Assembly: GCA_024653215.1 (NCBI GenBank)
Contig: JANLFU010000004.1
Coordinates: forward strand, 29,574-93,573
Reading direction: 5' to 3'
DNA from: Candidatus Saccharicenans sp.
GTDB lineage: Bacteria; Acidobacteriota; Aminicenantia; Aminicenantales; Saccharicenantaceae
Length of the DNA stretch: 64,000 nucleotides
Positions within the stretch are counted from its first letter, which is position 1. Every line of letters starts with the position of its first letter. The notes beneath the pieces were generated by a model. That model was not told the DNA's origin and made no database searches. It worked only from the letters and a program-made list of their open reading frames with translations. Positions 17,279 through 40,514 of this stretch are shown here, piece by piece. The translations under genes and the position numbers were made by a program.

Positions 17279-17997
<719 letters not shown>

Positions 17998-18001
<4 letters not shown>

Positions 18002-20324: not shown

Positions 20325-20459
20325 GGTCCTGCTCCTTAAAGCAAGCTATTTATTATCAATTATATAACAAATTCTCCGTCATCCTGACATTTTCTTTCGA
20401 GACTTTTCCCTTATTTATTTTGTCGCCAGGTTCTGAGAAAATAAGAAAAGGAGAGGAAA

Positions 20460-24477: not shown

Positions 24478-24491
24478 CCGCGGTCGGCTCT

Positions 24492-24519
24492 TTGACATTT
24501 GCAACCTTTTTTCTATAAT
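24492..24519 (+). promoter_or_regulatory. Sigma70-like promoter upstream of the acpS / acyl-CoA synthetase / ACP / kbl gene set
   Basis: TTGACA (24492-24497), 16-nt spacer, TATAAT (24514-24519). Followed by a 7-bp-stem hairpin (TCTGCTC…GAGCAGA) in the leader. Confidence 0.5.
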
Positions 24520-24591
24520 AACTTCTGCTCAAAATGCGAAAGAAGAGCAGATTAAGGGCAATTTTAGGCTGCTAACAGACCAGGAGGCCGA

Positions 24592-24966
24592 TTGATTTTT
24601 GGAGTGGGCGTAGACATCATCGAAGTAGCCAGGGTGGAAGATAAACTCAGCCGGACGCCGGGGCTGAAGGAAAAGCTCTACACCCCCGTTGAAATCGCCT
24701 ACTGCGAAAGCAAGAAATTCCCCTTTCAGCACTATGCGGCCCGCTTTGCGGCCAAGGAAGCTTTCATGAAGGCCCTGGGCACGGGCTGGAGCCGGGGAGT
24801 AAAGTTTTCTGAGATTGAAGTCCGGAACCTGGACAGCGGTCAACCGGTGCTTGAAGTCTACGGGCGAGCCAGGGAGCTCTGCCAGGCAGAGGGAATCACC
24901 AGGTCTTACGTTTCCCTGTCGCATCTTCAGACCAAGGCGGTGGCCACGGTCGTTCTGGAAAAATAG
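24592..24966 (+). CDS. acpS: Holo-[acyl-carrier-protein] synthase (4'-phosphopantetheinyl transferase)
   Basis: IFGVGVDIIEVARV…AARFAAKEAFMKALGTG… is the canonical AcpS fold. 124 aa. Confidence 0.85.
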   Translation: MIFGVGVDIIEVARVEDKLSRTPGLKEKLYTPVEIAYCESKKFPFQHYAARFAAKEAFMKALGTGWSRGVKFSEIEVRNLDSGQPVLEVYGRARELCQAEGITRSYVSLSHLQTKAVATVVLEK

Positions 24967-24984
24967 ATAAACTGTGGAGGGAAT

Positions 24985-26688: not shown

Positions 26689-26734
26689 CGGGCTTGAAAA
26701 ATTTATTAGAATAAAATAGAAAAAGGAGTAAGCT

Positions 26735-26983
26735 ATGGACGACTTAAAGGAAATCATCAAGAATTACGTCATCAACGAGTACCTGGAGCCGGACAGCGAC
26801 CCCATCGACTACGATACCCCGCTCATTTCAGGCGGCATCGTGGATTCATTCTCCATGGTCTCGCTGAAGAGGTTCCTGGAGAACAGGTACAACATCCAGA
26901 TTCCCGACGACCAGGCCACGCCCGAGGCCTTTGACTCGGTCAACAAGATTGCCGACCTGGTCAGGCGGTTCGTAAAGGCTTGA
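26735..26983 (+). CDS. Acyl carrier protein
   Basis: 82 aa acidic protein. Phosphopantetheine-attachment site GGIVDSFSMVSL (DS motif). Confidence 0.7.
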   Translation: MDDLKEIIKNYVINEYLEPDSDPIDYDTPLISGGIVDSFSMVSLKRFLENRYNIQIPDDQATPEAFDSVNKIADLVRRFVKA

Positions 26984-27039
26984 GTTGCCGTCGGACTTAA
27001 GATAACCGGCGGGTATTCATAGAGCCAAAGGAGGAAACC

Positions 27040-28287
27040 ATGGCTTTTCCAGATAGCGTGCGGGAATTATACCAGGCCCAGCTCAAGGCCCTGCAGGAGG
27101 GCGGGCTGTTCAAGGAAGAAAGGTTCATTCATTCGCCACAAGCGGCCGACATCGAGGTGGAATTTCCGGTCGGTTCTTCGCTGAAGAAGGTCATAAACAT
27201 GTGCGCCAACAATTACCTCGGCCTGTCCAGCCATCCCGAGGTGATCAAGGCTGCCCACGAGGGGCTGGAAACCCGGGGCTTCGGAATGTCCTCGGTGCGC
27301 TTTATCTGCGGCACCCAGGACATCCACAAGGAGCTGGAAAGGAAGATGACCGAGTTCCTGGGTACTGAGGATACCATCCTCTTCCCGTCCTGCATGGATG
27401 CCAACGCCGGGGTATTTGAGGCCATCCTGACCAAGGATGATGTCATCATCTCCGACCGGCTGGTTCATGCCTCGCTGATCGACGGCATCAGGCTGTGCAG
27501 CGCCATGCACGATACCTTCAAGCATTCCGACATGGCCCACCTCGAGGAAAAGCTCAAGATGTACCAGGACAAGAGGCTGCGGCTGGTGGTGACCGACGGC
27601 GTTTTCTCGATGGACGGTGATACGGCCAAGCTGGACCAGATGGTCGAGCTCTGCGAAAAGTACAACGCCATGCTGCTGGTTGACGATTCCCATGCCTCTG
27701 GTTTCATCGGGAAAACGGGGCGGGGGACCCACGAGAAGTACGGGGTCATGGGCAAGATTGACATCATCACCACCACCTTCGGTAAGGCCCTCGGCGGGGC
27801 CACCGGCGGCTGCGTGTCCGGAAGGCGGGAAATCGTGGAGATGTGCCGGCAGCGGGCCCGGCCGTACCTGTTCTCCAACACCATCGCCCCGGTCATAATC
27901 GTGGGCATCCTCAAGGTGCTGGAGATTCTCTCGGCCACCACCGAGCGCCGCGACAAGCTGGAGAAGAACACCGAGTACTGGAGAAAGGGCCTGAAGGAAG
28001 CCGGCTTCATCCTGAAGGAAGGCGATACCCCGATTGTCCCGGTCATGCTGTTCAACGCCAGGCTGGCCCAGGAATTCTCCAAGGCTCTCTACGAGGAAGG
28101 CATTTATGCCATCGGCTTCTTCTTCCCGGTTGTTCCTCAGGGCCAGGCCAGGATCAGAACCCAGATTTCCGCAGCCCACGAAATCCACCACCTGGACAGG
28201 GCCCTGGAGGCCTTCATCAAGGTCGGGAAGAAGTTCGACATCCTCCACAAGACCAAGCAGGAAATCGTAGAAAAATACGGGATGTAA
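27040..28287 (+). CDS. kbl: Alpha-oxoamine synthase, closest to 2-amino-3-ketobutyrate CoA ligase (glycine C-acetyltransferase)
   Basis: Extended identity with Kbl-type sequences: GLFKEER…CANNYLGL…VRFICGTQDIHKELE…DGVFSMDGD…RPYLFSN…FFFPVVPQGQARIRTQISAAH. The PLP lysine lies in TFGKALGG. Confidence 0.8.
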   Translation: MAFPDSVRELYQAQLKALQEGGLFKEERFIHSPQAADIEVEFPVGSSLKKVINMCANNYLGLSSHPEVIKAAHEGLETRGFGMSSVRFICGTQDIHKELERKMTEFLGTEDTILFPSCMDANAGVFEAILTKDDVIISDRLVHASLIDGIRLCSAMHDTFKHSDMAHLEEKLKMYQDKRLRLVVTDGVFSMDGDTAKLDQMVELCEKYNAMLLVDDSHASGFIGKTGRGTHEKYGVMGKIDIITTTFGKALGGATGGCVSGRREIVEMCRQRARPYLFSNTIAPVIIVGILKVLEILSATTERRDKLEKNTEYWRKGLKEAGFILKEGDTPIVPVMLFNARLAQEFSKALYEEGIYAIGFFFPVVPQGQARIRTQISAAHEIHHLDRALEAFIKVGKKFDILHKTKQEIVEKYGM

Positions 28288-28310
28288 TAGGTCCCGACAG
28301 ATCGCCATTA

Positions 28311-28338
28311 AAAGGGGACACCTTAGAGTGTCCCCTTT
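28311..28338 (+). terminator. Perfect 11-bp-arm inverted repeat 24 nt after the kbl stop. Likely an intrinsic terminator.
   Basis: AAAGGGGACAC-CTTAGA-GTGTCCCCTTT, followed by TAAG. Confidence 0.5.
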
Positions 28339-28387
28339 AAGTCCTTTCTTGGGCTGCTTTTTAAGGCAAAGCCTATGAAAGAAATAG

Positions 28388-28414
28388 GGAGACACTCTAA
28401 GGTGTCCCCTTTTG
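28388..28414. repeat. Second copy of the same palindromic element in inverted orientation
   Basis: GGGAGACACTCTAAGGTGTCCCCTTTT is the reverse complement of the 28311-28338 element with 1-2 mismatches. The pair brackets the junction between the kbl operon and the RHS cassette array. Confidence 0.5.
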
Positions 28415-28445
28415 CTCCCTTAATACCATTCCCTGATTAAAATGA

Positions 28446-28901
28446 AAAAATTATGCCTTTGACGGGAGGCTTCTGGCTGAGTATGATGGATATGGGAATT
28501 GCCTGCGTGAGTATATCTACATAGGGGCGAAGATGGTGGCTGAGTACCAGCCGGCTACGGGCAAGTATTACTACTACACCACCGACCAGATTAACTCCAC
28601 CCGGGTGGTGACGGATGATGAGGGTAACGTGGTGTATTCCGCGGTCCATGACCCCTATGGCGGGGTGCAGCAGACCTGGGTCAACACCTTCAACCCCGGG
28701 TGGAAATTTTCCGGCAAGGAGCAGGATGCCGAGTCAGGTCTCTACTACTTCGGGGCCCGCTACTACGACCAGAGCCTCTACCGCTTCCTCAGCCCCGACC
28801 CGGTGATTCCCACCGACCGGGCCCTTTACAACCCGCAGCGGTGGAATCTGTATGGGTATTGCGGAAATAATCCGATAAATTTTGTCGATCTAGATGGCCG
28901 T
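28446..28901 (+). repeat. RHS core-tip repeat copy A. It encodes …YAFDGRLLAEYDGYGNCLREYIYIGAKMVAEYQP…YYYYTTDQINSTRVVTDDEGNVVYSA…LYYFGARYYD…LYRFLSPDP…NNPINFVDLDGR.
   Basis: The frame opens directly after a stop at 28443-28445, with no start codon at the homology boundary. Nearly identical nucleotide and protein sequence recurs at the head of each downstream toxin ORF. Confidence 0.8.
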
Positions 28902-29441
28902 ATTTTAGTTCCGGTAAACAATATTGCAGACGCTACTATTGCTGCGAGATATAAGTACCTTGATAATAGGTTTTTGAGCAAACTTTCTGATGTCTTCTTC
29001 TGGCTTAGCGAAAGCGGTATCGATATCATAATTACCAGTATGTATAGACCGGCGGCTTTTCAGGCCGAGTTGAGAAAGCAAAACCCGGCCAACACCGCGA
29101 AAGGCATAAGTTATCATCAGACAGGCTGGGCGATAGATATATCCTGGGCAAATTTTTCAGAAGAAAAATTCAAGGAATTCGTTGATTATTGTAAATCCAG
29201 AGGTTTTATAGTCATTAAAGAGACGCGCGTTAACAGTGACGGTACCACCTCAGTATGGATACACATAAGCATAGATGACCCTAAGAAAAAATCTTCGAAG
29301 GCCGCAAGTTCAGCGGAACGACTTTTCCACTTATATAACAGTGCCATTTTTAATATGATAAATAGTTTTTTTGAGTTGATGATGTCACAGGATCCTTGGT
29401 TTGGAATGGTGACTGCACCGTATGAGCAATACATGATTTGA
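28533..29441 (+). CDS. Orphan RHS C-terminal module A: RHS core tip fused to an M15/LAS-type (VanY-like) peptidoglycan peptidase toxin domain
   Basis: After the …NNPINFVDLDGR junction, the C-terminal 180 aa contain SYHQTGWAIDIS (SxHxxGxAxD) and VWIHISID (WxH). These are hallmarks of M15 D-Ala-D-Ala / L-Ala-D-Glu peptidases. The toxin domain is AT-rich, unlike the repeat. Confidence 0.6.
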   Translation: MVAEYQPATGKYYYYTTDQINSTRVVTDDEGNVVYSAVHDPYGGVQQTWVNTFNPGWKFSGKEQDAESGLYYFGARYYDQSLYRFLSPDPVIPTDRALYNPQRWNLYGYCGNNPINFVDLDGRILVPVNNIADATIAARYKYLDNRFLSKLSDVFFWLSESGIDIIITSMYRPAAFQAELRKQNPANTAKGISYHQTGWAIDISWANFSEEKFKEFVDYCKSRGFIVIKETRVNSDGTTSVWIHISIDDPKKKSSKAASSAERLFHLYNSAIFNMINSFFELMMSQDPWFGMVTAPYEQYMI

Positions 29442-29462
29442 ATCACAAATTAGGAGAAATGG

Positions 29463-30800
29463 ATGAAAACGCGAGCAATTATTTTTTTGGCATCGATGCT
29501 AACATTAAATTCTTTAACTCTTTCGGCGTCGTCGCCAACCTCTTTTGATGATTTAATCCAGTGGGCAATCTTAAGGGCAGAAACAAATATCAAATATAAG
29601 ATCGGGAGCTATACAGATTATATTCAAGTCTGGTACGACTTAACCTCATTGATTCCAAGAATAGAAAATGCAGAGCTGCGAGCCAGAGCTGAATTCTTGC
29701 GGTTAAAAGCTATTGAACAGGGATTGTGGCTATTACAGGGGAGTGGTCTCGAAGGACAAGAGATCAGGCCTGAGGGGGAGGCCTGGCTTAAGGCTATCGG
29801 CGAATATATTTATTTAGCTGGTCCAGATTGGCCATGGAATAGATGGTCAATACGGCCTGATATATGGTGGAAATACTGCGACCTTTATTCGGCAACTTCT
29901 TTTTCCGATGATTTTGCCTGGGAGGCGGCCAGCGAAGACCTGCCTTATGAATGCGAGGGCGATTTGGTTTGCGAGGTAGAAAAGATTAATAGGACTTACG
30001 GACGTTATCTGAATAAATTTCCTCAGGGGAAATATTATCGTCTGGCACTGGAGAGAATTTATAATTTCCTTGTTGTCAGGGTTCCTGAATTAGGATTCGA
30101 GAGCATAAAAAAGGAGGATTTCAGCCCAGAGGTATGGGATGAATTAGATGGAAATCTAAGATCGCTATACGGGGTTATTGTAAAGACGGATACTGAGAGT
30201 AAAGACGAGTATAGCTATTCTGTTTTGTCAAACTTCGAGCGGGTGTTTGGAGATGTGGTTAAAGATAAGAAGTCAAGCCTCCCTGCTATTGATAAAAAGA
30301 GCGAAGATTCGAACTTATATTCTGGATTGTCGAGGACCAATTTTAATATTTTGGATCAGCCGCCAGAAATAGCCATGGCCCTTTGGAAGAAACTTAAAAA
30401 CGAGCAAGCCGAGACGAAGAATCAAAACCAACTGGGCTTAATCGAGTTAGAGGAATTGATATGCCTTGAGAAAATGTTGTCAAGCCGCACAGTTGAGGAT
30501 CTCCTATCTGGTAAGGTTCTTGAAGCGGCGGATGTTTCACTAATTGAAGGAAAACATGTCAAGCATGAAGCTTTATTGGACCTGCATAAGAAGTTCAAAA
30601 ATCAGGCCGTATCCGATGACATTGCTTTTTACTTAACGCAAAACACATTCAGCCGACCAGGTACCAGTTCTTATACAGGCATTAGTGCTTCCATGATAAT
30701 GAGGGAAATAAATGAGAAAGAAGGGCTTTACCTGAGGCTTCATCCAAGGGGTAAATATGTTCCTATATGCCTTTTAATATTATCGAATCGATGGGGATGA
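29463..30800 (+). CDS. Secreted (signal-peptide) protein, candidate periplasmic immunity protein for module A
   Basis: 445 aa. N-terminal signal peptide MKTRAIIFLASMLTLNSLTLSAS. Low GC. Lies immediately downstream of toxin A. Confidence 0.45.
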   Translation: MKTRAIIFLASMLTLNSLTLSASSPTSFDDLIQWAILRAETNIKYKIGSYTDYIQVWYDLTSLIPRIENAELRARAEFLRLKAIEQGLWLLQGSGLEGQEIRPEGEAWLKAIGEYIYLAGPDWPWNRWSIRPDIWWKYCDLYSATSFSDDFAWEAASEDLPYECEGDLVCEVEKINRTYGRYLNKFPQGKYYRLALERIYNFLVVRVPELGFESIKKEDFSPEVWDELDGNLRSLYGVIVKTDTESKDEYSYSVLSNFERVFGDVVKDKKSSLPAIDKKSEDSNLYSGLSRTNFNILDQPPEIAMALWKKLKNEQAETKNQNQLGLIELEELICLEKMLSSRTVEDLLSGKVLEAADVSLIEGKHVKHEALLDLHKKFKNQAVSDDIAFYLTQNTFSRPGTSSYTGISASMIMREINEKEGLYLRLHPRGKYVPICLLILSNRWG

Positions 30801-30997
30801 TAAGCGGCAAAAACCCGCTCGGAATTAAGGCCTCATTTGAACCCGGGGATCAGTCATATGAAGTTGAGCTAGCTAAGCTTGGCGAGGAATTGAAAACTTG
30901 TCAAAAGGAAAACGAGAATCTTAAAATCGCGAAGCAGGCCCTAGATGAGTATCAGGGGCTGAAAACTTATAGTAAACCCGATGAATTTTTAAGATGA
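30767..30997 (+). CDS. Small hypothetical ORF (76 aa) between cassettes A and B
   Basis: ORF overlaps the end of the previous gene by 34 nt. No recognisable motif. May be a cassette remnant. Confidence 0.15.
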   Translation: MPFNIIESMGMISGKNPLGIKASFEPGDQSYEVELAKLGEELKTCQKENENLKIAKQALDEYQGLKTYSKPDEFLR

Positions 30998-31038
30998 ATA
31001 AGGGAGAGTTCATAATTGGAAGGTTAAATGATGTAAGA

Positions 31039-31425
31039 TAAAACTTAGGGGCGAAGATGGTGGCTGAGTACCAGCCGGCTTCGGGCAAATATTACTACTA
31101 CACCACCGACCAGATTAACTCCACCCGGGTGGTGACGGATGATGAGGGTAACGTGGTATATTCCGCGGTCCATGATCCCTATGGCGGGTTGCAGCAGACC
31201 TGGGTCAACACCTTCAACCCCGGGTGGAAATTTTCCGGTCATGAGCAGGACCCTGAATCCTCCCTTTACTACTTCGGGGCCCGCTACTACGACTCTACTC
31301 TCTACCGCTTCCTCTGCCCCGACCCGGCATTTAATGTCTCTCTAATGAAAAGCGATATGCAACATTGGAACCTTTATTCTTATTGCAGAGATAATCCCTT
31401 AAACTTCATAGATTTTACCGGTTTA
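31039..31425 (+). repeat. RHS core-tip repeat copy B. Homology begins at …GAKMVAEYQPASGKYYYY…
   Basis: About 90% identical at protein level to copies A, E, F and G over YYYYTTDQINSTRVVTDDEGNVVYSAVHDPYGG…WKFSG.EQD…LYYFGARYYD. Confidence 0.8.
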
Positions 31426-31974
31426 TATTCATTTACTGTTCATGTAAATATTATAAGGCTCAGCTATGGGGCATTAGTTCCTGATAGCAGACCAGATCAT
31501 ATGATATGGATGAGGGGTGTGGGCCTTACCCTGTATCCATCCGGCAAAATTACCCCAACAATTGGAGATAATGGCAAAGCTGAATTAAAATTTGAACTCG
31601 ACTGCCATATTTATATTTTGCCTGACGAGCAATTGAAAAATTTTGGAACAGATTATGCTTCGGTAATAAAGCACGAAATGACTTATCATAAGGAGTTCGT
31701 TGAATTATGGGTTAGCATGTCGCTAAGTCGCATAGAAAAAAAGTGGAGAGAAGAGATGAAAAAAGATCCCCAAGAGGCCCTAAAAAATGCTTATAAAAGA
31801 TTTGAAAAAACAACGAAAACAGCCGAATGGATAAGCAACATACTCCACTTCGCATCTTTAAATCTATATATGGAAGTGGTGGCATCTTATTGGGATGAAA
31901 TAGATCGTGATTGGCTCGCATGGAAATACGATCCATATATGGCCTGGCTTTTAATGGTTCCTTATGCAAATTAA
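31057..31974 (+). CDS. Orphan RHS C-terminal module B: RHS core tip fused to an HExxH putative zinc-metallopeptidase toxin domain
   Basis: Junction …DNPLNFIDFTGL. The C-terminal domain contains VIKHEMTYH (HExxH). It shares architecture with the module D toxin domain. Confidence 0.55.
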   Translation: MVAEYQPASGKYYYYTTDQINSTRVVTDDEGNVVYSAVHDPYGGLQQTWVNTFNPGWKFSGHEQDPESSLYYFGARYYDSTLYRFLCPDPAFNVSLMKSDMQHWNLYSYCRDNPLNFIDFTGLYSFTVHVNIIRLSYGALVPDSRPDHMIWMRGVGLTLYPSGKITPTIGDNGKAELKFELDCHIYILPDEQLKNFGTDYASVIKHEMTYHKEFVELWVSMSLSRIEKKWREEMKKDPQEALKNAYKRFEKTTKTAEWISNILHFASLNLYMEVVASYWDEIDRDWLAWKYDPYMAWLLMVPYAN

Positions 31975-32013
31975 CCCGTTTCGAATGGGGTTGTGTATGA
32001 TGGAGAGCAAATT

Positions 32014-32424
32014 ATGAAAAAAGTTTTATCTATTCCCCTTATTACAATTATCATCCTTATTATTATCATTTTAGTTTATTGGATTTATGTATGGATCCAA
32101 GAAGATAGGTTAATGAAGAAGATAACCTCGATTGAAGAGGGGATGGATGAAGACGAAGTAATCCGGTTATTAGGGGAACCGAAGAGAGAAGTCCAGGTAA
32201 AAACTGATGAGATAACGAAGGGATGGTCAATACCCGGACAGGGGGATCTTGAAAGAGTGAAGAAAGAATATAAAGAGCTTGTAAGCTATGTGTATTATAT
32301 TAAAAGATACAACCTTATGAAATTGCGGGAACGGTTACCTGGGTCCATACACTCTATCTACATTGATCCGGCCTCAAGAAAGGTGGTATATGTGAAGAGC
32401 ATATTTATTATGTCTTATTGGTAA
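32014..32424 (+). CDS. Membrane-anchored BamE/SmpA_OmlA-like protein, candidate immunity protein for module B
   Basis: N-terminal TM (IPLITIIILIIIILVYWIYVWI). Then GMDEDEVIRLLGEPKRE, resembling the SmpA/OmlA GMT..V...LG.P signature. GGAGAG RBS before the ATG at 32014 (track start 31993). Paralogous to 34521-34985. Confidence 0.5.
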   Translation: MKKVLSIPLITIIILIIIILVYWIYVWIQEDRLMKKITSIEEGMDEDEVIRLLGEPKREVQVKTDEITKGWSIPGQGDLERVKKEYKELVSYVYYIKRYNLMKLRERLPGSIHSIYIDPASRKVVYVKSIFIMSYW

Positions 32425-33098
32425 ATATGTTTATTAAAGATATATCTGAATCCTCCCTTTATTACTTCGGGGCCCGCTACTACGACCCCGCGCTCTACCG
32501 CTTCCTTAGCCCCGACCCGGTGATCCCAACTGACCGGGCCCTCTACAACCCGCAGCGGTGGAATCTGTATGGGTATTGTTTAAATAATCCTCTGAACCTT
32601 TGTGATCCCGACGGCAGGGCGAGTGATTATGTACATTATGACCTTACCTATAAATTAGCCTTGGAAGCTGGTATTCCTGAGGATGAAGCCCGAATTATTG
32701 CTGAGGCCAACCGTAATGTTGACAAGGATTGGCGGACAAGTTCATTTAATCCTCTGGGACGCAGATTTCATTACCCTGATGCTTTTACTCTAAATTGGGC
32801 TTTGGATATTGCGTATAACACGAAAGACCCAGTTATGCTTGGATTTGCGTTGCACGTAATTCAGGATGCAATCTGGCATTTTAATTGGTTATTTAATCCG
32901 CTGGGGCATTTAATAGAATCTGTAGGAGATAAGGTTTTTGATTGGATCTGTTCTAGGTTAGGCGTATATCCAGACATCGAATTTGATCCAGATAGCCCAT
33001 ACTCAGCTTTTATTTCGTTGGATATACTCTGGTGGGTGAGATATGTGACATTTGATATATTGCAGGATTATAAAGCAAGAAAAGAGGCTTGTCGTTAA
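32418..33098 (+). CDS. Orphan RHS C-terminal module C: truncated core tip fused to a toxin domain of unknown type (H-x3-D-x3-H motif)
   Basis: Junction …CDPDGR. The C-terminal domain has conserved His/Asp clusters (DYVHYDL…, ALHVIQDAIWHFNW) loosely reminiscent of Zn-dependent phospholipase C / P1-nuclease metal sites. Start codon uncertain. Confidence 0.45.
   Translation: MVNMFIKDISESSLYYFGARYYDPALYRFLSPDPVIPTDRALYNPQRWNLYGYCLNNPLNLCDPDGRASDYVHYDLTYKLALEAGIPEDEARIIAEANRNVDKDWRTSSFNPLGRRFHYPDAFTLNWALDIAYNTKDPVMLGFALHVIQDAIWHFNWLFNPLGHLIESVGDKVFDWICSRLGVYPDIEFDPDSPYSAFISLDILWWVRYVTFDILQDYKARKEACR
32448..32618 (+). repeat. RHS core-tip repeat copy C, 5'-truncated. Begins at …ESSLYYFGARYYDPALYRFLSPDP…
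   Basis: Only the distal half of the repeat (LYYFGARYYD…NNPLNLCDPDGR) is present. Confidence 0.75.
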
Positions 33099-33117
33099 TG
33101 GATAAGAAGGTTGTGAA

Positions 33118-33684
33118 ATGAAACCGAGACTTAATTTAACAAACAGAAGGGTATTGTTATTCTTGTTATATTGGGGGTTTGGAATTAGCTTTTCTATCTT
33201 TGATGCAGCCTATGGGGTATTACTGATATTTTTCCCATGGGCTGCGTTGGTATTAGGGCTTTTAGTTCTACCGTCGATATTAATATCTAATAAGCTTGGT
33301 TTTCCAGACACCACTCTTCTTTTTGGTCGCATTGGTTTAGTAATGTCGTTATATTTCGTTGCCGTCCTATTCGTTGTGCTTAGTGTGCTTTATGTTTTTA
33401 TATTAAATCAACTAAATTTGAGCACAGGGAAGAACTCAAGGTATAAATTTCCTTGGCTGACTTTTTTATTCCATTTATCCGGGATTTTCTGTTCGATACC
33501 TCTATATATAGGTTTTATCAATTCAGATAAAGTAAATCTTTTACCTTTTGCCAAATATTATCAGATGTTTGCCTACCCGATCTTAGCGATGGCAACATTT
33601 TTATTTATTTATATTGACTGGCGGCTGGCAAGGGAAATAGCCGAAGATGAGAAACAAGAAGCGGAGAATAGGTCTCAGTTTTAG
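33118..33684 (+). CDS. Polytopic membrane protein (5-6 TM), candidate immunity protein for module C
   Basis: 188 aa, almost entirely hydrophobic helices. AT-rich. Lies directly downstream of toxin C. Confidence 0.45.
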   Translation: MKPRLNLTNRRVLLFLLYWGFGISFSIFDAAYGVLLIFFPWAALVLGLLVLPSILISNKLGFPDTTLLFGRIGLVMSLYFVAVLFVVLSVLYVFILNQLNLSTGKNSRYKFPWLTFLFHLSGIFCSIPLYIGFINSDKVNLLPFAKYYQMFAYPILAMATFLFIYIDWRLAREIAEDEKQEAENRSQF

Positions 33685-34516
33685 GAATCAAAAAATGATG
33701 ACTATTCTATTTCCTGAAAATGGGATTCGACAGACCTGGATGGGGGGCAAAGAGGCCGGAGCGAGTAATTCCGGAAAGGAGCAGGACCCTGAATCCTCCC
33801 TCTATTACTTCGGTGCCCGCTACTATGACCCCACGCTCTACCGCTTCCTCAGCCCCGACCCTCAACAGATACCTGCAATCGCTCGTTTTGAAATTAATCG
33901 ATTTAATAAATATTTTTTTGCTAATAATAATCCCATATCCTATTTTGAATTTAGTGGATTGTGGGCGATTATTCACAAAGAAACTAAGATTATTAACGCC
34001 AGCTATATGAGCTATCTGGGAAAAAGTATTGAAGGCAAGGATGTTTATATGAAAGGGTTTGGGATGACAAACGTCCTGCCCGAAGATTTGAAGATAGATC
34101 TATCTAAAGAAACAGGTATCACAGTTAGTGTGACCTTTACAATATTCATTTTAGCGAAAGAAGATATTCAGTGGAAGCAAGAAGACGCAATAGTAGGTCA
34201 TAATAACTACGAAAATGTACTCAGGCATGAGCTAACACATGTTTATGACATTCTTCTAATGGTGTCTTTAGCCCTGAACAAAATTGAGGCCCAGTGGAAG
34301 GCAGGAAAGATTTCTGATGAGGAGGCCAGAAAATTAGTTAATAAAGCCTTCATAAGGGCATCTAAAGCTTCAAGCAGCCTCAGAGATGACTGGGGAGTAG
34401 AATGGTTTAAGTGGCTCATCAATTGGTTTGAAGAACTGAAACCAGAACATAATTATTCAGCTTTTTGGGAATGGCTACTAACACCATATATTTATTTTCT
34501 TATGAAATGCAATTAA
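33647..34516 (+). CDS. Orphan RHS C-terminal module D: truncated core tip fused to an HExxH toxin domain (paralog of module B)
   Basis: The C-terminal domain contains LRHELTHVYD (HExxH) in a context alignable to module B (…FILAKEDIQ… vs …YILPDEQLK…). The track start at 33647 overlaps the previous gene. The true start is uncertain. Confidence 0.5.
   Translation: MRNKKRRIGLSFRNQKMMTILFPENGIRQTWMGGKEAGASNSGKEQDPESSLYYFGARYYDPTLYRFLSPDPQQIPAIARFEINRFNKYFFANNNPISYFEFSGLWAIIHKETKIINASYMSYLGKSIEGKDVYMKGFGMTNVLPEDLKIDLSKETGITVSVTFTIFILAKEDIQWKQEDAIVGHNNYENVLRHELTHVYDILLMVSLALNKIEAQWKAGKISDEEARKLVNKAFIRASKASSSLRDDWGVEWFKWLINWFEELKPEHNYSAFWEWLLTPYIYFLMKCN
33770..33961 (+). repeat. RHS core-tip repeat copy D, 5'-truncated. 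Begins at …SGKEQDPESSLYYFGARYYD…
   Basis: Distal half of the repeat, ending …NNPISYFEFSGL. Confidence 0.75.
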
Positions 34517-34520
34517 TCCA

Positions 34521-34985
34521 ATGACTATAAAAATAAAGAAAAAAACGTTCATATTTATAATAGCGTTAGCGTTAGTTATTGGTGCTTTTGCATATTTGGG
34601 CATATTGGAAATGCTGGATAAAACTCTTGTCAGGCGAGCAGAGTTATTGAAAGCGGGGATGACAGAAAGTGACGTGGTAAATATCTTGGGAAAACCCCGG
34701 GAGTTCGAGCTTATAGACTTAAGAGTGGCAGAAAATAGAGGTCTGCCTAAGGCTATTTTGAGTCGGATTGAAAAATACAACCAGGCAATAAAATGGTGGG
34801 CATATTATGTGCCGGGATATCTAGTCAATCCACCGTTTCTTTTCCATCCAGGGCCTTACAGGACAATTGTTGTTGTCTTTATTGATCATAATGGACATGT
34901 GGTTCACTCAAGTATTGGTATAACAATTAGAAGAATAAAGCCTTTTGAATTACTAATGAAAGATCGCGATACAAATCAGAATTAG
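34521..34985 (+). CDS. Membrane-anchored BamE/SmpA_OmlA-like protein, candidate immunity protein for module D (paralog of 32014-32424)
   Basis: N-terminal TM (FIFIIALALVIGAFAYLGIL). Then GMTESDVVNILGKPRE, the same motif and position as in the module B partner. Confidence 0.5.
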   Translation: MTIKIKKKTFIFIIALALVIGAFAYLGILEMLDKTLVRRAELLKAGMTESDVVNILGKPREFELIDLRVAENRGLPKAILSRIEKYNQAIKWWAYYVPGYLVNPPFLFHPGPYRTIVVVFIDHNGHVVHSSIGITIRRIKPFELLMKDRDTNQN

Positions 34986-35075
34986 TAATAAAGGGTCTAA
35001 AAATAGGGAAAACGTTTGCTTTGTAACTTTATCTAGGCTGTTTGAGTTCCAAGAATTTTGAAACAGAGATTGTGG

Positions 35076-35500
35076 ATTGATATGATGGCTATGGGAATTG
35101 CCTGCGTGAGTATGTCTACATGGTGGCGAAGATGGTGGCTGAGTACCAGCCGGCTACGGGCAAGTATTACTACTACACCACCGACCAGGTTAATTCCACC
35201 CGGGTGGTGACGGATGATGAGGGTAACGTGGTGTATTCCGCGGCCCATGATCCCTATGGTGGAGTGCAGCAGACCTGGGTCAACACCTTCAACGCCGGGT
35301 GGAAATTTTCCGGCAAGGAGCAGGATGCCGAGTCAGGTCTCTACTACTTCGGTGCCCGCTACTATGACCCCACGCTCTACCGCTTCCTCAGCCCCGACCC
35401 GGCGATCCCCTCCGACCGGGCCATCTACAACCCGCAGAGGTGGAATTTATACGGGTATTGCCTGGGCAACCCGATAAATTATGTTGATATGGCCGGTGAG
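35076..35500 (+). repeat. RHS core-tip repeat copy E. Begins at …YDGYGNCLREYVYMVAKMVAEYQP…
   Basis: Full-length copy of the repeat, ending …GNPINYVDMAGE. Confidence 0.8.
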
Positions 35501-36034
35501 CAAGCAGAAAGCTCTCGAAAGCTGATAATAACCAGGACTATTTCTGGACCTACAGGAACGTTCGGTCGTTTTAAATTTGAGGGTAAATACATCACCATAG
35601 AAGGGGAGACGCTTGAACTTCCCTGGAGAAACAACATAAATTATATAAGCCGTATTCCTGAAGGGGAATACGAGGCGATATTACATTATTGGGATGATAG
35701 GGATATATGGGCCTTGTTGCTCCAAGACACTGGATCTCGTAAAGGGATTTACATCCACGAAGGGAACACGACAAAAAACACCAAGGGGTGTCCGCTTATT
35801 GGCCAGCGGTTTGATAACCAGGGGAGGCTATCAGGAGGCAGGGCACTTAGAGAGGCCATTACTGCTGATTATTTAATTGACCAGGTCTTAAGCGCCTGGT
35901 TTAATCTTGACAGGCTGAGCCGCACTGTTCAAAAGGCAACTGCTAAGATTGAAAGAGGGGAAGTGTATTCTGAGTGGGCATGGATTGGATTTACTCTAGT
36001 CATTAACGGCGTGCAATATTATTTTTATTTTTAA
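35120..36034 (+). CDS. Orphan RHS C-terminal module E: core tip fused to a YkuD-like (L,D-transpeptidase-fold) candidate peptidoglycan-targeting toxin domain
   Basis: C-terminal domain motif IYIHEGNTTKNTKGCPLIG (H-x9-T-x-G-C) resembles the His…(S/T)xGC catalytic motif of L,D-transpeptidase-like effectors. Homologous to the module F toxin domain. Confidence 0.45.
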   Translation: MVAKMVAEYQPATGKYYYYTTDQVNSTRVVTDDEGNVVYSAAHDPYGGVQQTWVNTFNAGWKFSGKEQDAESGLYYFGARYYDPTLYRFLSPDPAIPSDRAIYNPQRWNLYGYCLGNPINYVDMAGEQAESSRKLIITRTISGPTGTFGRFKFEGKYITIEGETLELPWRNNINYISRIPEGEYEAILHYWDDRDIWALLLQDTGSRKGIYIHEGNTTKNTKGCPLIGQRFDNQGRLSGGRALREAITADYLIDQVLSAWFNLDRLSRTVQKATAKIERGEVYSEWAWIGFTLVINGVQYYFYF

Positions 36035-36048
36035 TAAGGGGAACAAGA

Positions 36049-36726
36049 ATGAAATGGCCAGGCCTAAAATATCTTAATTTTCTGATTGCGTTTCCAATAC
36101 TAATGATGTCGTTGACTTACCCTCTGGAGAATACGTCGGTCGCTTATCCAAACCAGGTTAATAAGATGCTAACCTTAGAAGAAGCAAAAGAAATTATAGA
36201 TATTTTCTTAAACGACCCAACTGAGGCAAACTTTAAGATTGTACAAGAGACGATATATCCTTTTCTGAGTGTAGTCGATCAGGAATCAACACCGTTTCAA
36301 GACAAATTGTTTTCTTATGTACTTACTCGGGAGCCGTTCTGGATTTTTGAGTATGAAATATTTGCGGGTAATAGGTTAATGGCCTTGTTTGCCAGGAGGC
36401 TCTTGGATGTTTCAGACGGGGCTTATGCGAGCATGTTGTTTAAACTGTTCGGAAAGTTGAGTCGCCTTAATCCCGAGTTATTCCTGACCATGTTTAAGGA
36501 TGACATAAAAAAGCCGGTTTTAGAATTGGCAGTTACAGAATCAATTTTTCTCGAGGGAACAGAAAAATATCAAAGATATGACAGGTATGATCTAATCCAG
36601 AGGATAAAAGCATTAAGGACGGTAACCAATCCGGAACTAAGAAATATAAGAGATTATTGCATCTTATTATTGGAAAGAGAATTGAAGGAAAACGGGCTAT
36701 ATCAGATGGGATATTCTCGTAAGTAG
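36049..36726 (+). CDS. Secreted protein (signal peptide), candidate periplasmic immunity protein for module E
   Basis: Signal peptide MKWPGLKYLNFLIAFPILMMSL. C-terminal region …RIKALRTVTNPELRNIRDYCILLLEREL aligns with the module F partner (…RIKALETVDCPIYLDLRNECIKILEKEI). Confidence 0.5.
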   Translation: MKWPGLKYLNFLIAFPILMMSLTYPLENTSVAYPNQVNKMLTLEEAKEIIDIFLNDPTEANFKIVQETIYPFLSVVDQESTPFQDKLFSYVLTREPFWIFEYEIFAGNRLMALFARRLLDVSDGAYASMLFKLFGKLSRLNPELFLTMFKDDIKKPVLELAVTESIFLEGTEKYQRYDRYDLIQRIKALRTVTNPELRNIRDYCILLLERELKENGLYQMGYSRK

Positions 36727-36737
36727 AGTTTAGCCTA

Positions 36738-37592
36738 ATGATCTTAAGAGATTTTCCTTACACCGCCGACCAGGTTAACTCCACCCGGGTGGTGACGGAT
36801 GATGAGGGTAACGTGGTATATTCCGCGGTCCATGATCCCTATGGCGGGTTGCAGCAGACCTGGGTCAACACCTTCAACCCCGGGTGGAAATTTTCCGGTC
36901 ATGAGCAGGACCCTGAATCCTCCCTTTACTACTTCGGGGCCCGCTACTACGACCCCGGCCTCTACCGCTTCCTCAGCCCCGACCCGGTGATTCCCACCGA
37001 CCGGGCCCTTTACAACCCGCAGAGGTGGAATCTGTATGGGTATTGCCTCGGCAACCCGATAAATTTCGTAGATCCCTTCGGGGATATTACGATTAGAATA
37101 TGGCGGACACTTTATAACAATTATGCCACATATGGGGTTTATGAAATCGAGCTTGGAGACACGAGAATCTGGGGTTTTACAATGGAGCCGGCGAAGGGCA
37201 AGGGAAAAGGACCGATACCGGCAGGGATATATGAGGCTGACTGGTTCTATTCAGAAGAAAATAAAGAACTCAGGATTAAAATTAATGACATCCCGAACTT
37301 CAAAAACATAAGAATTCACAAAGGAAATTACCCTGGCGATACGACCGGATGCATTTTAGTAGGGAAAGATGTTAATACAGGAGGCGATCTGTTAGGCTCG
37401 GGAAAAGCGATGGCAGAAATAAGAGGGGGAATTATGGATTATCAGATGGGTGCTCTGAAAGAATATATAGCTGATGGCGAATTAGATCTTGAACTTTTGC
37501 ATCGGATTTTTGATATGCAAGTTATCATATATGATATTCCGAAGGGTAGCGTAACGGTAGAAGTTACATCTATACGCTATCTTATGTATTAA
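36738..37592 (+). CDS. Orphan RHS C-terminal module F: core tip fused to a YkuD-like candidate toxin domain (paralog of module E)
   Basis: IRIHKGNYPGDTTGCILVG (H-x9-T-x-G-C). Alignable with module E across …IPEGEYEA… / …IPAGIYEA… and the HxGN…TxGC core. Confidence 0.45.
   Translation: MILRDFPYTADQVNSTRVVTDDEGNVVYSAVHDPYGGLQQTWVNTFNPGWKFSGHEQDPESSLYYFGARYYDPGLYRFLSPDPVIPTDRALYNPQRWNLYGYCLGNPINFVDPFGDITIRIWRTLYNNYATYGVYEIELGDTRIWGFTMEPAKGKGKGPIPAGIYEADWFYSEENKELRIKINDIPNFKNIRIHKGNYPGDTTGCILVGKDVNTGGDLLGSGKAMAEIRGGIMDYQMGALKEYIADGELDLELLHRIFDMQVIIYDIPKGSVTVEVTSIRYLMY
36759..37085 (+). repeat. RHS core-tip repeat copy F. Begins at …YTADQVNSTRVVTDDEGNVVYSAV…
   Basis: Copy truncated within the YYYTTDQ segment, ending …GNPINFVDPFGD. 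Confidence 0.8.
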
Positions 37593-37610
37593 AGAGAGGG
37601 GGACGTCAAG

Positions 37611-38294
37611 ATGATGCTGGATTTTATAAAAGCCTTATCAAAGCTCTTATTAACTTCATTTTTTCTTCTTTTAATATCCGATTTAATGATTGCTCAGGCA
37701 GGAGCGGGGGGCGCACAAGATGCAATCATTCTTGATTGGGATAAGTTAAGGTCAGCGGTACAGAGATACAATTTAAAGCCGAACGAGGATAATGCGAGGG
37801 CGATATTAGAATCGATTCCTGAAAAAATGCCTGATAAGCAGGTTGGGGATGATGAACGTGCTTTAGATTATATGCTTGATAAGAGTCCAATAATTAAGAA
37901 GCAGATTGAGTCGGGGAATGAGTATCTGGCTGAAGCTGCATTCAGAATGTATTTTATTGTGCTTCCTGGTGATGCTCTGGAAGAGCTTACCTTAATGCTC
38001 TGCAAGATGCTGGAAAAGAAGCCCGAGCTATATCTTAGCTTGTTAAAAAAATATAAACCTCAATTTCCATGGTATCTCGAGTACCCATTGCTGATGACCG
38101 AGTTTGATGAAAAATTTGATGCAGAGCCCGATGGCCGGATTAGGCGTGACATTAAGATATATCGGCGGCGGATAAAGGCCTTAGAGACAGTGGACTGTCC
38201 TATATATTTAGATTTAAGGAATGAATGCATAAAGATTTTGGAAAAAGAGATTAGTCTGTTTGAATCGAAACTAAAAATTGAGTTGACTTCTTAA
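37611..38294 (+). CDS. Secreted protein (signal peptide), candidate immunity protein for module F (paralog of 36049-36726)
   Basis: Signal peptide LLLTSFFLLLISDLMIAQA. C-terminal similarity to the module E partner. GAGAGGGGGA RBS. Confidence 0.5.
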   Translation: MMLDFIKALSKLLLTSFFLLLISDLMIAQAGAGGAQDAIILDWDKLRSAVQRYNLKPNEDNARAILESIPEKMPDKQVGDDERALDYMLDKSPIIKKQIESGNEYLAEAAFRMYFIVLPGDALEELTLMLCKMLEKKPELYLSLLKKYKPQFPWYLEYPLLMTEFDEKFDAEPDGRIRRDIKIYRRRIKALETVDCPIYLDLRNECIKILEKEISLFESKLKIELTS

Positions 38295-38295
38295 T

Positions 38296-38715
38296 ATGCC
38301 AGAGGGAATTCCGTTCGCAATAAGCCAGAATAAATTCAAGATCGTGGAGAGGCTGGGTGCTTTTGAGAGGGTAAGGGAAAGGTTAAGAATCAGGTGGGAA
38401 GAAGCCGGGGTAGATGGGTCTATTTCAGGCTACAGGCCTTCAAGTGGGGCGGCCATTGACAGGCTGAAGAGGATGGATGGCTCAAAGGTAGGCTCGGGCG
38501 GGGACTTACGGACGATGTCTGTGGGGACCGTCGGGATATATTACATCTATGCCTTTGACGGGAGGCTTCTGGCTGAGTATGATGGATATGGGGATTGCCT
38601 GCGTGAGTACATCTACATAGGGGCGAAGATGGTGGCTGAGTACCAGCCAGCTACTGAAAAGTATTACTACTATACCACCGACCAGATTAACTCCAGCGGG
38701 GGTGGTTCTATGTAA
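38296..38715 (+). pseudogene. RHS stub G: retains a longer upstream YD-repeat-like segment (…GIYYIYAFDGRLLAEYDGYGDCLREYIYIGAKMVAEYQPATEKYYYYTTDQINS) then terminates with SGGGSM*. No toxin domain.
   Basis: Homology to the shared repeat stops exactly at TTDQINS, where copies A/B/E continue with TRVVTDDEG. Followed by a stop. Interpreted as a recombination or deletion scar. Confidence 0.5.
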
Positions 38716-38830
38716 AACAACGCAATATTCTTGCTGGCGCTTTTTATCGCCGTCAGTGGCCCTGAAAGATGTACAGGAAGGGCCGGTAAATTTAAGCCAG
38801 AATAAATAGGCCAGAACAATATAATCGTGC

Positions 38831-38884
38831 TTGACAAATTGCGTAAATAGGCATAGTATGTCGATAAATAGTCGACATACTATG
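38831..38884 (+). promoter_or_regulatory. Promoter with overlapping perfect inverted-repeat operator for the abiEi-abiEii operon
   Basis: TTGACA (38831-38836), 17-nt spacer, TAGTAT (38854-38859). Perfect 13-bp inverted repeat CATAGTATGTCGA-N7-TCGACATACTATG (38852-38884) spanning the -10 to just before the ATG at 38892. Confidence 0.6.
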
Positions 38885-38891
38885 CAGAAAA

Positions 38892-39545
38892 ATGAACGCG
38901 CTTGAGCTTCGAAGCCGAATTCAGACTGAAATATTTGACTACCAGACTCTAACCAGTGCGCTCGGCAGCCTGTCATCTCCAAGGGATAAGATTACAGAAC
39001 TGCTGAGGAGCGGGATAATTATAAGGGTTAAGAAGGGGCTTTACGTATTTGGCGAAAAGTATCGTAAGCATGCCTATTCCAGGGAACTGCTGGCCAACCT
39101 TATATATGGCCCATCCTATCTCTCTCTTGATTATGCCCTGGCCTATTACGGCCTCATACCGGAAAAGGTTGAAGTCCTGACCTCGGTTACCCCCAATCGA
39201 TCTCGCCGATTTGCCACGCCGGTTGGTCTTTTCACTTACAGGCAGATACCGCATGGTGCTTACATAAATGGCCTGACCAGGGTTGAGGCCGATAATGACC
39301 AGGCCTATCTAATTGCCATTCCCGAGAAGGCCCTGGCTGATAAGGTCGCTTCCCTGCGCGGGCTCGCTTTCAATTCAACCAGGGAAGTCGCTCGTTTTCT
39401 CGAGGAAGATTTGAGAATAGATCTGGAGGCGCTGCGTTCTTTCTCAGTGGCCAAACTTGAAGAATTTGCCGCCGGGTATCGTTCCCGCAAGCTTAGGTAC
39501 CTGGCTGCCATGGTAAAAAAACTGGCCGCGAACCGGGAGAAATAA
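38892..39545 (+). CDS. abiEi: AbiEi-family antitoxin / transcriptional regulator (type IV TA, abortive-infection type)
   Basis: N-terminal wHTH-like region with …IIIRVKKGLYVF… …LANLIYGPSYLSLDYALAYYGLIPE…, typical of AbiEi_4/COG5340 proteins. Precedes the nucleotidyltransferase gene with a 1-nt gap. Confidence 0.65.
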   Translation: MNALELRSRIQTEIFDYQTLTSALGSLSSPRDKITELLRSGIIIRVKKGLYVFGEKYRKHAYSRELLANLIYGPSYLSLDYALAYYGLIPEKVEVLTSVTPNRSRRFATPVGLFTYRQIPHGAYINGLTRVEADNDQAYLIAIPEKALADKVASLRGLAFNSTREVARFLEEDLRIDLEALRSFSVAKLEEFAAGYRSRKLRYLAAMVKKLAANREK

Positions 39546-39546
39546 A

Positions 39547-40413
39547 ATGAATGAAGCCGTCAGGCAAATGCTGGGGGGATATGAAATTAAATCCCCGGGC
39601 GATTCGCTCTGGGCCTTGCGCGAAATAATTCAACAGGTGGCCCTTCTCGGGCTGTGGAGAAGCAAGTTTTTTGAAAGGGCCGCGTTTTATGGGGGGTCGG
39701 CCCTGAGGATAATTTATGGGATCGACCGGTTTTCCGAGGACCTGGATTTCTCCCTCCTCGAGGCGGACCCGGCTTTCTGCCTGGCCGATTATGGCCAGGC
39801 CCTGAAGCGGGAGCTGCTTTCCTTTGGGTTTTCTGTTGAAGTTGAAAGCAAAACAAAAAAGGAGAAAACAACCGTTCAGTCGGCCTTTCTTAAAACCGAT
39901 ACCCGTGAGCAGATGATCTCAGTGGGAATTAAGCCTGAACTTGTTAAGCAGATCCCGCCTAACCAGGTGCTAAAAATTAAGCTCGAGGTCGACGTGACCC
40001 CGCCACCCGGATTCTCAACTGAGATGCGTTATCTTCTAAAACCGATTCCGTTTTCCGTAAGGACCTTTACCCTGCCGGACATGTTCGCGGGCAAGATGCA
40101 CGCGGTTCTCTGCCGTCAATGGAAAAGCCGGCTCAAGGGCCGGGACTGGTATGACCTGGTCTGGTTTACCGCTCATCACCCAGAGTTGAGATTATCGCAT
40201 TTAGAGCAGAGGATGCGCCAGACCGGTCACTGGAAGGGATCAAGTCCCCTGGACGAGAGCACTTTTCGAGAATTGCTGATTGGCAGGGTAAAATCGGTGG
40301 ATGTGGAGCAAATAAAGAGGGAGGTGGAGCCCTTCGTCAGCAATCCGGCTGTCCTGGAAGTCTGGTCGCGAGAATTTTTTCTGGATATCATAAAGCGTAT
40401 TAAAGTTATCTGA
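39547..40413 (+). CDS. abiEii: AbiEii/AbiGii-family nucleotidyltransferase toxin (DUF1814)
   Basis: GGSALRIIYGIDRFSEDLDFS matches the conserved N-terminal nucleotidyltransferase motif of AbiEii. 288 aa. Confidence 0.7.
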   Translation: MNEAVRQMLGGYEIKSPGDSLWALREIIQQVALLGLWRSKFFERAAFYGGSALRIIYGIDRFSEDLDFSLLEADPAFCLADYGQALKRELLSFGFSVEVESKTKKEKTTVQSAFLKTDTREQMISVGIKPELVKQIPPNQVLKIKLEVDVTPPPGFSTEMRYLLKPIPFSVRTFTLPDMFAGKMHAVLCRQWKSRLKGRDWYDLVWFTAHHPELRLSHLEQRMRQTGHWKGSSPLDESTFRELLIGRVKSVDVEQIKREVEPFVSNPAVLEVWSREFFLDIIKRIKVI

Positions 40414-40514
40414 CGGCCTTCGACAGTGACATCGTATTCTGCAGGGAAGGGCCCGGGTCTTTAATTGGCTATCAGGACTACCTGCGCGGGGAAATAACAG
40501 GGAAAGGCTACACT

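Follow-up and report, generated by a model that had tools for sequence, protein, structure and literature searches.

A tandem array of Rhs toxin/immunity cassettes in Candidatus Saccharicenans, probably the remnant of a locus that lost its full-length rhs gene

Introduction

This study concerns a tandem array of truncated rhs genes in a 64,000-nucleotide stretch of Candidatus Saccharicenans sp. DNA (GenBank assembly GCA_024653215.1, contig JANLFU010000004.1, positions 29,574 to 93,573), hereafter the window, to which all coordinates refer unless a related locus is named. [quoted passage not shown] In Salmonella Typhimurium, a main rhs gene is accompanied by an orphan rhs-CT/rhsI module (Koskiniemi et al. 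2014, PMC3967940; Starsta et al. 2020, PMC7043789), and the contact-dependent growth inhibition (CDI) system of E. coli EC869 has eleven orphan cdiA-CT/cdiI modules (Poole et al. 2011, PMC3150448). Arrays of orphan immunity genes remaining after effector displacement have been described in Vibrio cholerae T6SS clusters (PMC5361080), as have Rhs orphan immunity genes in Serratia (PMC10539506). A full-text search of a paper library that combined Aminicenantes with Rhs turned up nothing relevant.

Here, we propose that the array is what remains of the 3' part of a chromosomal rhs (YD-repeat polymorphic toxin) locus from which the full-length gene (the parent) was deleted, and that it persists as an immunity island and recombination reservoir, a reading to which we would give a probability of about 0.72. 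Related loci are given as L numbers and database proteins as P numbers.

Seven direct copies of an Rhs core tip

Direct-repeat analysis of positions 26000-41000 identified seven copies of an Rhs core tip within 28452-38706, all in direct orientation on the same strand and in register in a MAFFT alignment:

c1 tip, 28452-28889, plus strand, 438 nt
c2 tip, 31043-31422, plus strand, 380 nt
c3 tip, 32445-32615, plus strand, 171 nt
c4 tip, about 33735-33958, plus strand, ~224 nt, strongly conserved only at 33769-33861
c5 tip, 35081-35497, plus strand, 417 nt
c6 tip, 36759-37082, plus strand, 324 nt
c7 tip, 38548-38706, plus strand, 159 nt, preceded by 251 nt of pre-tip homology (38297-38547)

Copies c1 to c6 all match the NCBIfam family TIGR03696 (Rhs_assc_core) over its curated cut-off (E = 2.7e-15 to 3.6e-22) and each extends in frame into an open reading frame (ORF) of 226-305 amino acids (aa). 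The pattern YYFGARYYDP..YRF..DP and a terminal D/E-x-x-G can be read in each copy, and identity to c1 is far beyond chance (94% for c7, 91% for c5, 90% for c6, 82% for c2 and 81% for c3). Repeats, register and family match all agree with a preliminary description of the region, made from the letters alone, which had recognised seven tandem copies of an RHS core tip.

Mapping by phmmer, with shell, Ig/LamG, pre-tip and tip queries, placed the first retained tip residue at 1 in c1, 24 in c2, 93 in c3, 66 in c4, 11 in c5 and 40 in c6. All six copies are 5'-truncated: they consist of tip residues only, without shell and without export signal. The preliminary description had counted five 5' cut positions; the alignment gives six different ones among the six cassettes, c5 beginning at YDGYG. 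The seventh copy is a stub, as had been stated, but a fragment of a different type: it is 3'-truncated, and on its 5' side it extends 250 nt beyond all other copies. The drop in G+C content noted at the junction of repeat and toxin is also present: tips range from 0.46 to 0.59 and the toxin and immunity parts from 0.36 to 0.44, with flanks at 0.54-0.56 and the whole island at 0.436.

Four families of predicted toxins with co-varying partners

The six tips lead into the predicted toxins T1 to T6, each followed by a putative immunity gene (I1 to I6):

Cassette 1, 28452-29441, plus strand: full tip, ATG at 28533 (TIGR03696, 6.5e-22)
Toxin T1 of cassette 1, 28890-29441, plus strand: VanY/DUF5715-like peptidase domain (DUF5715, 4.8e-8; VanY, 2.8e-4)
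I1, 29463-30800, plus strand: 445 aa, N-terminal signal peptide, no Pfam family; putative cassette 1 immunity protein
Cassette 2, 31043-31974, plus strand: tip from nt 68, ORF 31057-31974 (TIGR03696, 2.6e-19)
I2, 31993-32424, plus strand: 143 aa, one N-terminal transmembrane segment; family shared with I4 and sister IB
Cassette 3, 32427-33098, plus strand: tip from nt 278, DUF6765 domain
I3, 33118-33684, plus strand: 188 aa, multi-pass membrane protein; family shared with sister IC1 and IC2
Cassette 4, 33695-34516, plus strand: degenerate tip and HExxH domain (TIGR03696, 2.7e-15)
I4, 34521-34985, plus strand: 154 aa, one N-terminal transmembrane segment
Cassette 5, 35081-36034, plus strand: tip from nt 31, ORF 35120-36034 (TIGR03696, 3.6e-22; DUF5675, 1e-22)
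I5, 36049-36726, plus strand: 225 aa, signal peptide; family shared with I6 and sister IA; syntenic ortholog in L015
Cassette 6, 36738-37592, plus strand: tip from nt 124, ATG from non-homologous upstream DNA (TIGR03696, 1.3e-21; DUF5675, 9e-20)
I6, 37611-38294, plus strand: 227 aa, signal peptide or N-terminal transmembrane segment; syntenic orthologs in L016 and L010
Terminal stub c7, 38296-38715, plus strand: end of the parent Ig/LamG region, pre-tip linker 38297-38547, tip residues 1-50, then cut

Six different C-terminal domains had been announced. They are AT-rich and in frame, as stated, but fall into four families rather than six unrelated ones, namely T1 alone, T2 with T4 and TB, T3 with TC, and T5 with T6 and TA (TA, TB and TC being toxins of a near-clonal sister contig described below). 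T2 is an HExxH-type domain without a Pfam family, in which H, E, H and E are invariant in the family alignment, and the T4 domain, likewise of HExxH type and, as with TB, without a Pfam family, is distantly related to it (27% identity); the 5' junction of cassette 2 lies immediately upstream of AGGGGCGAAG-ATG. The DUF6765 domain of T3 has a zinc phospholipase C / P1 nuclease-like fold, and a preprint (10.64898/2026.04.11.717860) compares DUF5675 to C82 (L,D-transpeptidase-type) peptidases. Searches of PDB sequences with three toxin domains gave no match below E = 0.3, and neither T5 nor P0001 could be traced to a contig by exact look-up. All four types form the C-terminus of full-length RHS proteins: VanY-like in P0136, P0131 and P0125, HExxH in P0112, DUF6765 in P0122-P0124 and P0126, and DUF5675 in P0139.

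Toxin and partner families co-vary, T1 occurring with I1, HExxH domains with I2/I4/IB, DUF6765 with I3/IC1/IC2 and DUF5675 with I5/I6/IA, and pairs are still adjacent in L015, L016, L021 and L011; in L021, the T4 ortholog (92% identical) is followed by that of I4 (91%). I1 to I6 all have a signal peptide or a transmembrane segment, and T1 to T6 lack hydrophobic N-termini. The preliminary description had seen a small membrane or secreted protein behind each toxin: the partners are indeed exported or membrane proteins, but the first has 445 aa. The downstream ORFs are best regarded as putative cognate immunity proteins, and the exported partners together with the peptidoglycan- or lipid-type domains suggest that the toxins are likely to target the envelope. 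The Rhs core domain, the toxin domains that end full-length RHS proteins and the co-varying partners support the displaced-tip polymorphic-toxin reading that had been proposed.

The space between I1 and cassette 2 is filled by a 76-aa ORF without family match (30767-30997), which extends into the end of I1; its gene call in the sister contig is 68 aa long.

In three relatives, an rhs parent gene stands directly behind kbl

Across the 64 kb of the window, phmmer with the four queries, which derive from relatives, matched only the seven tip-bearing ORFs, and no rhs shell was found. Pfam scans of the window's other large ORFs, which are housekeeping genes (including RecA, FTHFS, a histidine kinase, TonB-dependent receptors, MFS and methyltransferases), found no PAAR, VgrG or T6SS gene, and the two approaches agree with the absences reported in the preliminary description; precomputed Pfam matches of the sister contig (window 17040-50413) likewise include no PAAR, VgrG, T6SS or Rhs shell. 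No tRNA gene, integrase or recombinase was found nearby in the window. The gene upstream of the array had been named kbl, and it scores 581 bits against TIGR01822 (cut-off 493). Two features lie between its stop codon, at 28287, and c1:

Terminator-like, G+C-rich hairpins, 28310-28335 and 28388-28413, no strand assigned: two copies of one 26-nt hairpin in opposite orientation, 52 nt apart
Putative deletion junction, 28415-28451, no strand assigned: last 37 nt ahead of c1, from junction alignments

The homologs found are annotated as Candidatus Saccharicenans or Candidatus Aminicenantes. The upstream order UvrA, MntP, ACPS, acyl-CoA ligase, acyl carrier protein, kbl is shared by the window and three related loci, L018 (metagenome-assembled genome, MAG, R1_Bin_MAXBIN_085_1), L088 (ENA ERZ27247260) and L089 (JGI 3300032058). 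In these three, the full-length main rhs gene that is missing upstream of the window's cassettes is present: a parent of ~2,100 aa directly follows kbl. All three parents are degenerate, L018 lacking 1.4 kb of shell and being frameshifted, and L088 and L089 having an in-frame TAA and a ~10-nt frameshifting deletion in the tip. Both post-kbl hairpins are kept in L088 and L089, and the first in L020. The window matches L088 up to 28414 and resumes at 28451, skipping L088 9469-15030 (~5.5 kb), which holds promoter, signal peptide, shell, insert and pre-tip. Cassette 1 therefore occupies the place where the parent's own 3' end would be expected. The missing parent would be explained in this way: its normal place appears to be the kbl-proximal end of the same locus, as in L018, L088 and L089, from which it would have been deleted here.

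Other relatives hold shorter alleles. L012 has five or more cassettes and a stub, and no AbiE genes (see below). In Candidatus Saccharicenans subterraneus BY38 and in Ch100, whose flanks are 96-98% identical to those of the window, the locus is reduced to two orphan immunity genes, one of them frameshifted, followed by the stub and AbiE. In L020 and L024, a lone tip fragment remains between kbl and the outer-membrane gene. Orthologous stubs close the 3' end of the locus in L012, L015, L021 and L035. The kbl-side junction falls at tip nt 1 in the window, nt 7 in L020 and nt 17 in L024, from which it follows that the parent was lost more than once. An intact toxin ORF stands ahead of each immunity gene in the array, which is therefore not an immunity-only island, a state that the BY38 allele approaches.

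A single parent-less junction common to L020, L024 and the window was also considered and was rejected on nucleotide comparison, which resolves three junctions. In BY38 (L035 8823-9775), both orphan immunity genes encode membrane proteins and lack any toxin part; the second is the frameshifted one, relative to a 167-aa gene of the sister strain.

The parent is predicted to be Sec-dependent

The stub c7 is 97% identical to a 588-aa ORF of the sister contig, and this ORF led to longer relatives. L013 holds an intact parent ORF of 2,105 aa (4715-11032), and a full gene is also visible in L009 (6588-12862). The L013 product comprises YD repeats (RHS_repeat, RHS_core), two choice-of-anchor D / HYDIN Ig-like domains, a LamG-like stretch, a pre-tip linker, Rhs_assc_core and a toxin. 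Throughout the clade (L013, L009 and L088, 9671-16041), an insert of ~650 aa, made of two or three choice-of-anchor D / HYDIN-type Ig-like domains and the LamG-like stretch, separates the main YD shell from the last YD repeats. Thirteen database protein clusters of 2,042-2,244 aa have the same Pfam pattern as the parent. Sec signal peptides can be read at the parent N-termini in L009 and L018, and no PAAR, VgrG or T6SS genes were found around the parents of L009, L013 and L088; the rhs system is accordingly best described as predicted to be Sec-dependent and not linked to a T6SS. Scanning genome contigs with the pre-tip region gave nothing, and a metagenome scan yielded one unrelated contig end (L087).

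Two distant genomes each contain a long orphan of 588 aa (L001 13676-15442 and L009 13287-15053), and the database proteins P0014, P0019 and P0040 (581-588 aa) start at the same conserved Met in the LamG-like stretch (YDMT.YTGSVW), which points to a second preferred cut region or to a recurrent gene-calling start.

Recombination between tips in a near-clonal sister strain

The sister contig, a 129-kb JGI contig of sample 3300038743 (pieces L001 and L003), carries a kbl gene with an identical protein product. On the left, it is 99.94% identical to the window over 11.8 kb (window 17040-28862). It then carries three extra cassettes, a 6.6-kb indel, before rejoining the window at 28481; their products are a DUF5675 toxin paired with a 409-aa protein, the 588-aa long orphan paired with one of 142 aa, and a DUF6765 toxin accompanied by two membrane partners. 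A column-by-column comparison showed that the window's c1 corresponds to sister copy A to at least 28556 and to sister copy D from 28808. Copies A and D are identical across 28557-28807 (251 bp), where the window matches both except for a 3-nt patch at 28771-28773, and therefore the crossover falls within this tract. On the right, there are 7 mismatches in 20,867 bp, all within the c5 tip at 35189-35294, a gene-conversion tract in which the sister copy of c5 has been homogenised to the c1/A/C/D type.

Unequal crossover from tip to tip and gene conversion are thus the only differences between two otherwise clonal genomes: the tips act as recombination substrates, via which cassettes are gained, lost and homogenised. 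The repeated independent recombination that the preliminary description had deduced is directly visible in this crossover and conversion tract. At the 3-nt patch, c1 reads AGA and both sister copies read CCG, which turns the conserved YYDP into YYDQ; no copy in the window or in the sister strain is a possible donor.

Estimates of the ratio of nonsynonymous to synonymous divergence (dN/dS) are 0.15 for T5 and 0.17 for I5 against their L015 orthologs, and 0.48 and 0.33 for T4 and I4 against L021, where synonymous divergence (dS) is 0.08 and 0.13. For kbl, dS between the window and L018, another contig of the MAG of L021, is 0.41. The far lower dS of cassette 4 supports horizontal exchange of AT-rich payloads that would be younger than their host genomes, in line with the horizontal origin proposed earlier for the tips.

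Neighbouring genes

An AbiEi/AbiEii type IV toxin-antitoxin pair (38892-40413) separates the stub from the outer-membrane gene. The sister strain, BY38, Ch100 and L021 have it too, and L012, L020 and L024 do not; because of this patchy presence, it is an insertion of its own at this hot spot, specific to certain lineages. On the other side, kbl belongs to a conserved cluster (23911-28287) that also encodes a phosphopantetheinyl transferase, an enzyme resembling acetate/acyl-CoA ligases and a small acyl carrier protein, the latter weakly matching the ornithine-lipid ACP family. The setting is suggestive of a pathway for lipids or amino-lipids, not of threonine breakdown.

Discussion

The allele series suggests how the array may have arisen. 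As in the relatives, the ancestral order would have been kbl, a promoter, an rhs gene of ~2,100 aa, its immunity gene, displaced toxin/immunity cassettes and the terminal stub, the rhs product consisting of Sec signal peptide, YD shell, Ig-like/LamG-like insert, last YD repeats, tip and toxin. A deletion of ~5.5 kb would have removed promoter, signal peptide, shell, insert and pre-tip, such that cassette 1 now starts at tip residue 1 behind the kbl terminators; cassettes 2-6 would be older displaced tips and c7 the oldest remnant. The conserved G+C-rich tips serve as homology arms for RecA-type recombination, with unequal crossover adding or removing cassettes, gene conversion homogenising the tips and new AT-rich payloads arriving horizontally.

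Without shell or export signal, the toxins should not be deliverable from the cell, and the value of the array would then lie in its immunity set and in its use as a reservoir. Six exported or membrane immunity proteins would protect against neighbours still using envelope-targeting toxins, and the array could re-arm an incoming or resident parent. Retention of immunity after toxin loss is seen in BY38, where two orphan immunity genes and a stub make up the locus.

Several points weigh against this proposal. A second full-length rhs gene with a matching tip may lie elsewhere in the genome, beyond the 64-kb window. Immunity function, toxicity and transcription are read from sequence. All six toxin ORFs are intact and dN/dS of T5 is 0.15, which fits a reservoir still in use better than a pure immunity island. 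The first cassette could derive from an orphan cut at tip nt 1 and not from the parent's own 3' end, and L089 does hold an orphan cut at tip nt 7. Last, the kbl-adjacent parents are all damaged; an assembly artefact in L018 is still conceivable, and the lesions of L088 and L089 were found in two independent samples.

A different use of the cassettes is suggested by signals within the tips. The first 36 nt of the tip contain a sigma-70-like element (TTGACG-17-TATGAT), at 28459-28487 in c1 and 38555-38583 in c7, with a variant at 35058-35086 in c5. Together with the Shine-Dalgarno/ATG (AGGGGCGAAG-ATG), this putative internal promoter might drive a tip-plus-toxin protein of ~300 aa from each cassette, either keeping the downstream immunity genes expressed or forming a toxin-antitoxin-like module. 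Of 15 tips from diverse relatives, 13 keep TTGACG and 11 keep TATGAT, and the Phe codon is TTT in all tips having Phe there (14/14). Independent 5' junctions cluster, at least four contexts falling within tip nt 1-7 and six within nt 68-74; a Poisson estimate for 6 of 29 junctions in a 7-nt window is ~7e-5, a rough figure before correction for scanning. The loci of these clusters are as follows:

Junction-cluster loci: window 28452 and 31043; L010 7185; L011 3680 and 5700; L012 4411; L014 4753; L015 906; L016 1594; L089 9237

On their 3' side, the first cluster adjoins the -35-like TTGACG and the second AGGGGCGAAG-ATG. Moreover, c3, c4 and c6 take an in-frame ATG from foreign DNA, and the conserved core of Salmonella rhs contains internal promoters (PMC7043789). 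However, a promoter and terminator consensus scan showed no enrichment of the region over shuffled sequence (31 promoter-like sites, against 24.7 +/- 5), and the signals lie in coding sequence, under protein-level constraint and homogenised by recombination. BLAST alignment ends are approximate and the sample of loci is biased to long tips, and toxins that look periplasm-acting, with exported immunity proteins, misfit a cytoplasmic toxin-antitoxin pair of type II. We consider such autonomous expression rather doubtful. Slightly less doubtful, although tentative, is the view that the array is a self-sufficient, translated multi-immunity operon, in which the tip promoter and the ribosome-binding site and start have been selected, junctions pile up just 5' of them and the operon outlives repeated, independent loss or decay of the delivery gene; the at least three deletion junctions and two pseudogenised parents seen at this locus across relatives would fit it.

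Alternatively, a full-length rhs gene with a near-identical tip could reside elsewhere in the genome, the array being a remote store from which tips are swapped ectopically. The toxin ORFs are intact and under purifying selection, intact parents occur away from kbl in the genus (L013), and recombination of orphan with main genes is documented in Salmonella (PMC3967940). Yet a collection of 5.8 billion proteins, the sister strain's sample included, contains none more than 73% identical to the closest parent (L018); BY38, 96-98% identical, contributes only its stub among the best 80 tip-bearing loci; and ectopic recombination of distant direct repeats would delete or rearrange the intervening chromosome. 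We regard a remote store as unlikely.

That the array is non-functional debris, a decaying pseudogene graveyard with no present role, might be argued from the lost parent, the erosion to a lone stub (L020, L024) and the frameshifted BY38 immunity gene, but is very improbable given that all twelve toxin and immunity ORFs of the window are open, have the same sequence in the sister strain except in one tip tract, and are conserved in orthologous pairs (45-92% identity, dN/dS 0.15-0.48). Three further candidates were rejected: a shufflon or inversion switch, the tips being all direct repeats on one strand with only trivial inverted matches; an integrative island, with no tRNA, integrase or recombinase; and a T6SS effector island, with no PAAR, VgrG or T6SS gene.

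Comparison with known systems

The remnant of an rhs locus proposed here extends rhs orphan-cassette biology to the Aminicenantes, an uncultured, widespread anaerobic lineage, and to a different type of delivery, predicted to be Sec-dependent, with an Ig-like insert and putatively envelope-targeting toxins. It also makes micro-evolution visible, in that two near-clonal strains differ only by a tip crossover and a tip gene-conversion tract, and the series of alleles from full parent to lone stub suggests that lineages repeatedly drop the weapon and retain the immunity genes. It is a known type of system, for which neither this lineage nor this delivery context had been described, and involves no new mechanism or principle: the established model of polymorphic toxin loci is unaltered, although the micro-evolutionary evidence is unusually clear.

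As in the present parents, WapA is said to combine signal-peptide export with a polymorphic C-terminal toxin and a downstream immunity gene. It reportedly differs in being wall-associated in a Gram-positive bacterium and in lacking the Ig-like/LamG-like insert, and to our knowledge it is not known for long orphan arrays.

The orphan immunity genes of Vibrio and Serratia outlast their cognate effector, as in the BY38 allele, with a presumed role in protection against non-kin; unlike these, the window has kept its toxin-coding parts intact as well, and has no T6SS context. As in Salmonella rhs, a 5'-truncated core leads into a distinct toxin with an immunity gene (here putative) behind it, the locus is rearranged through homologous recombination within the common core, and the conserved core possibly contains internal expression signals. 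Whereas Salmonella has one orphan behind an intact, T6SS-linked main gene, six cassettes and a stub stand here without a main gene, the parent type has a Sec signal peptide, the toxins are apparently envelope-targeting and the immunity proteins are exported. CDI arrays, in turn, trail an intact cdiBAI cluster and depend on CdiA/CdiB two-partner secretion with VENN demarcation, in place of an Rhs core tip with a DPxG-like end. They nevertheless share with the present array the tandem truncated tips, the variable upstream homology, an immunity gene, here putative, for each tip and modules common to several strains, as well as the roles proposed for them, an immunity repertoire and a reservoir of diversity (PMC3150448), which have likewise been proposed for Rhs orphans (PMC3967940).

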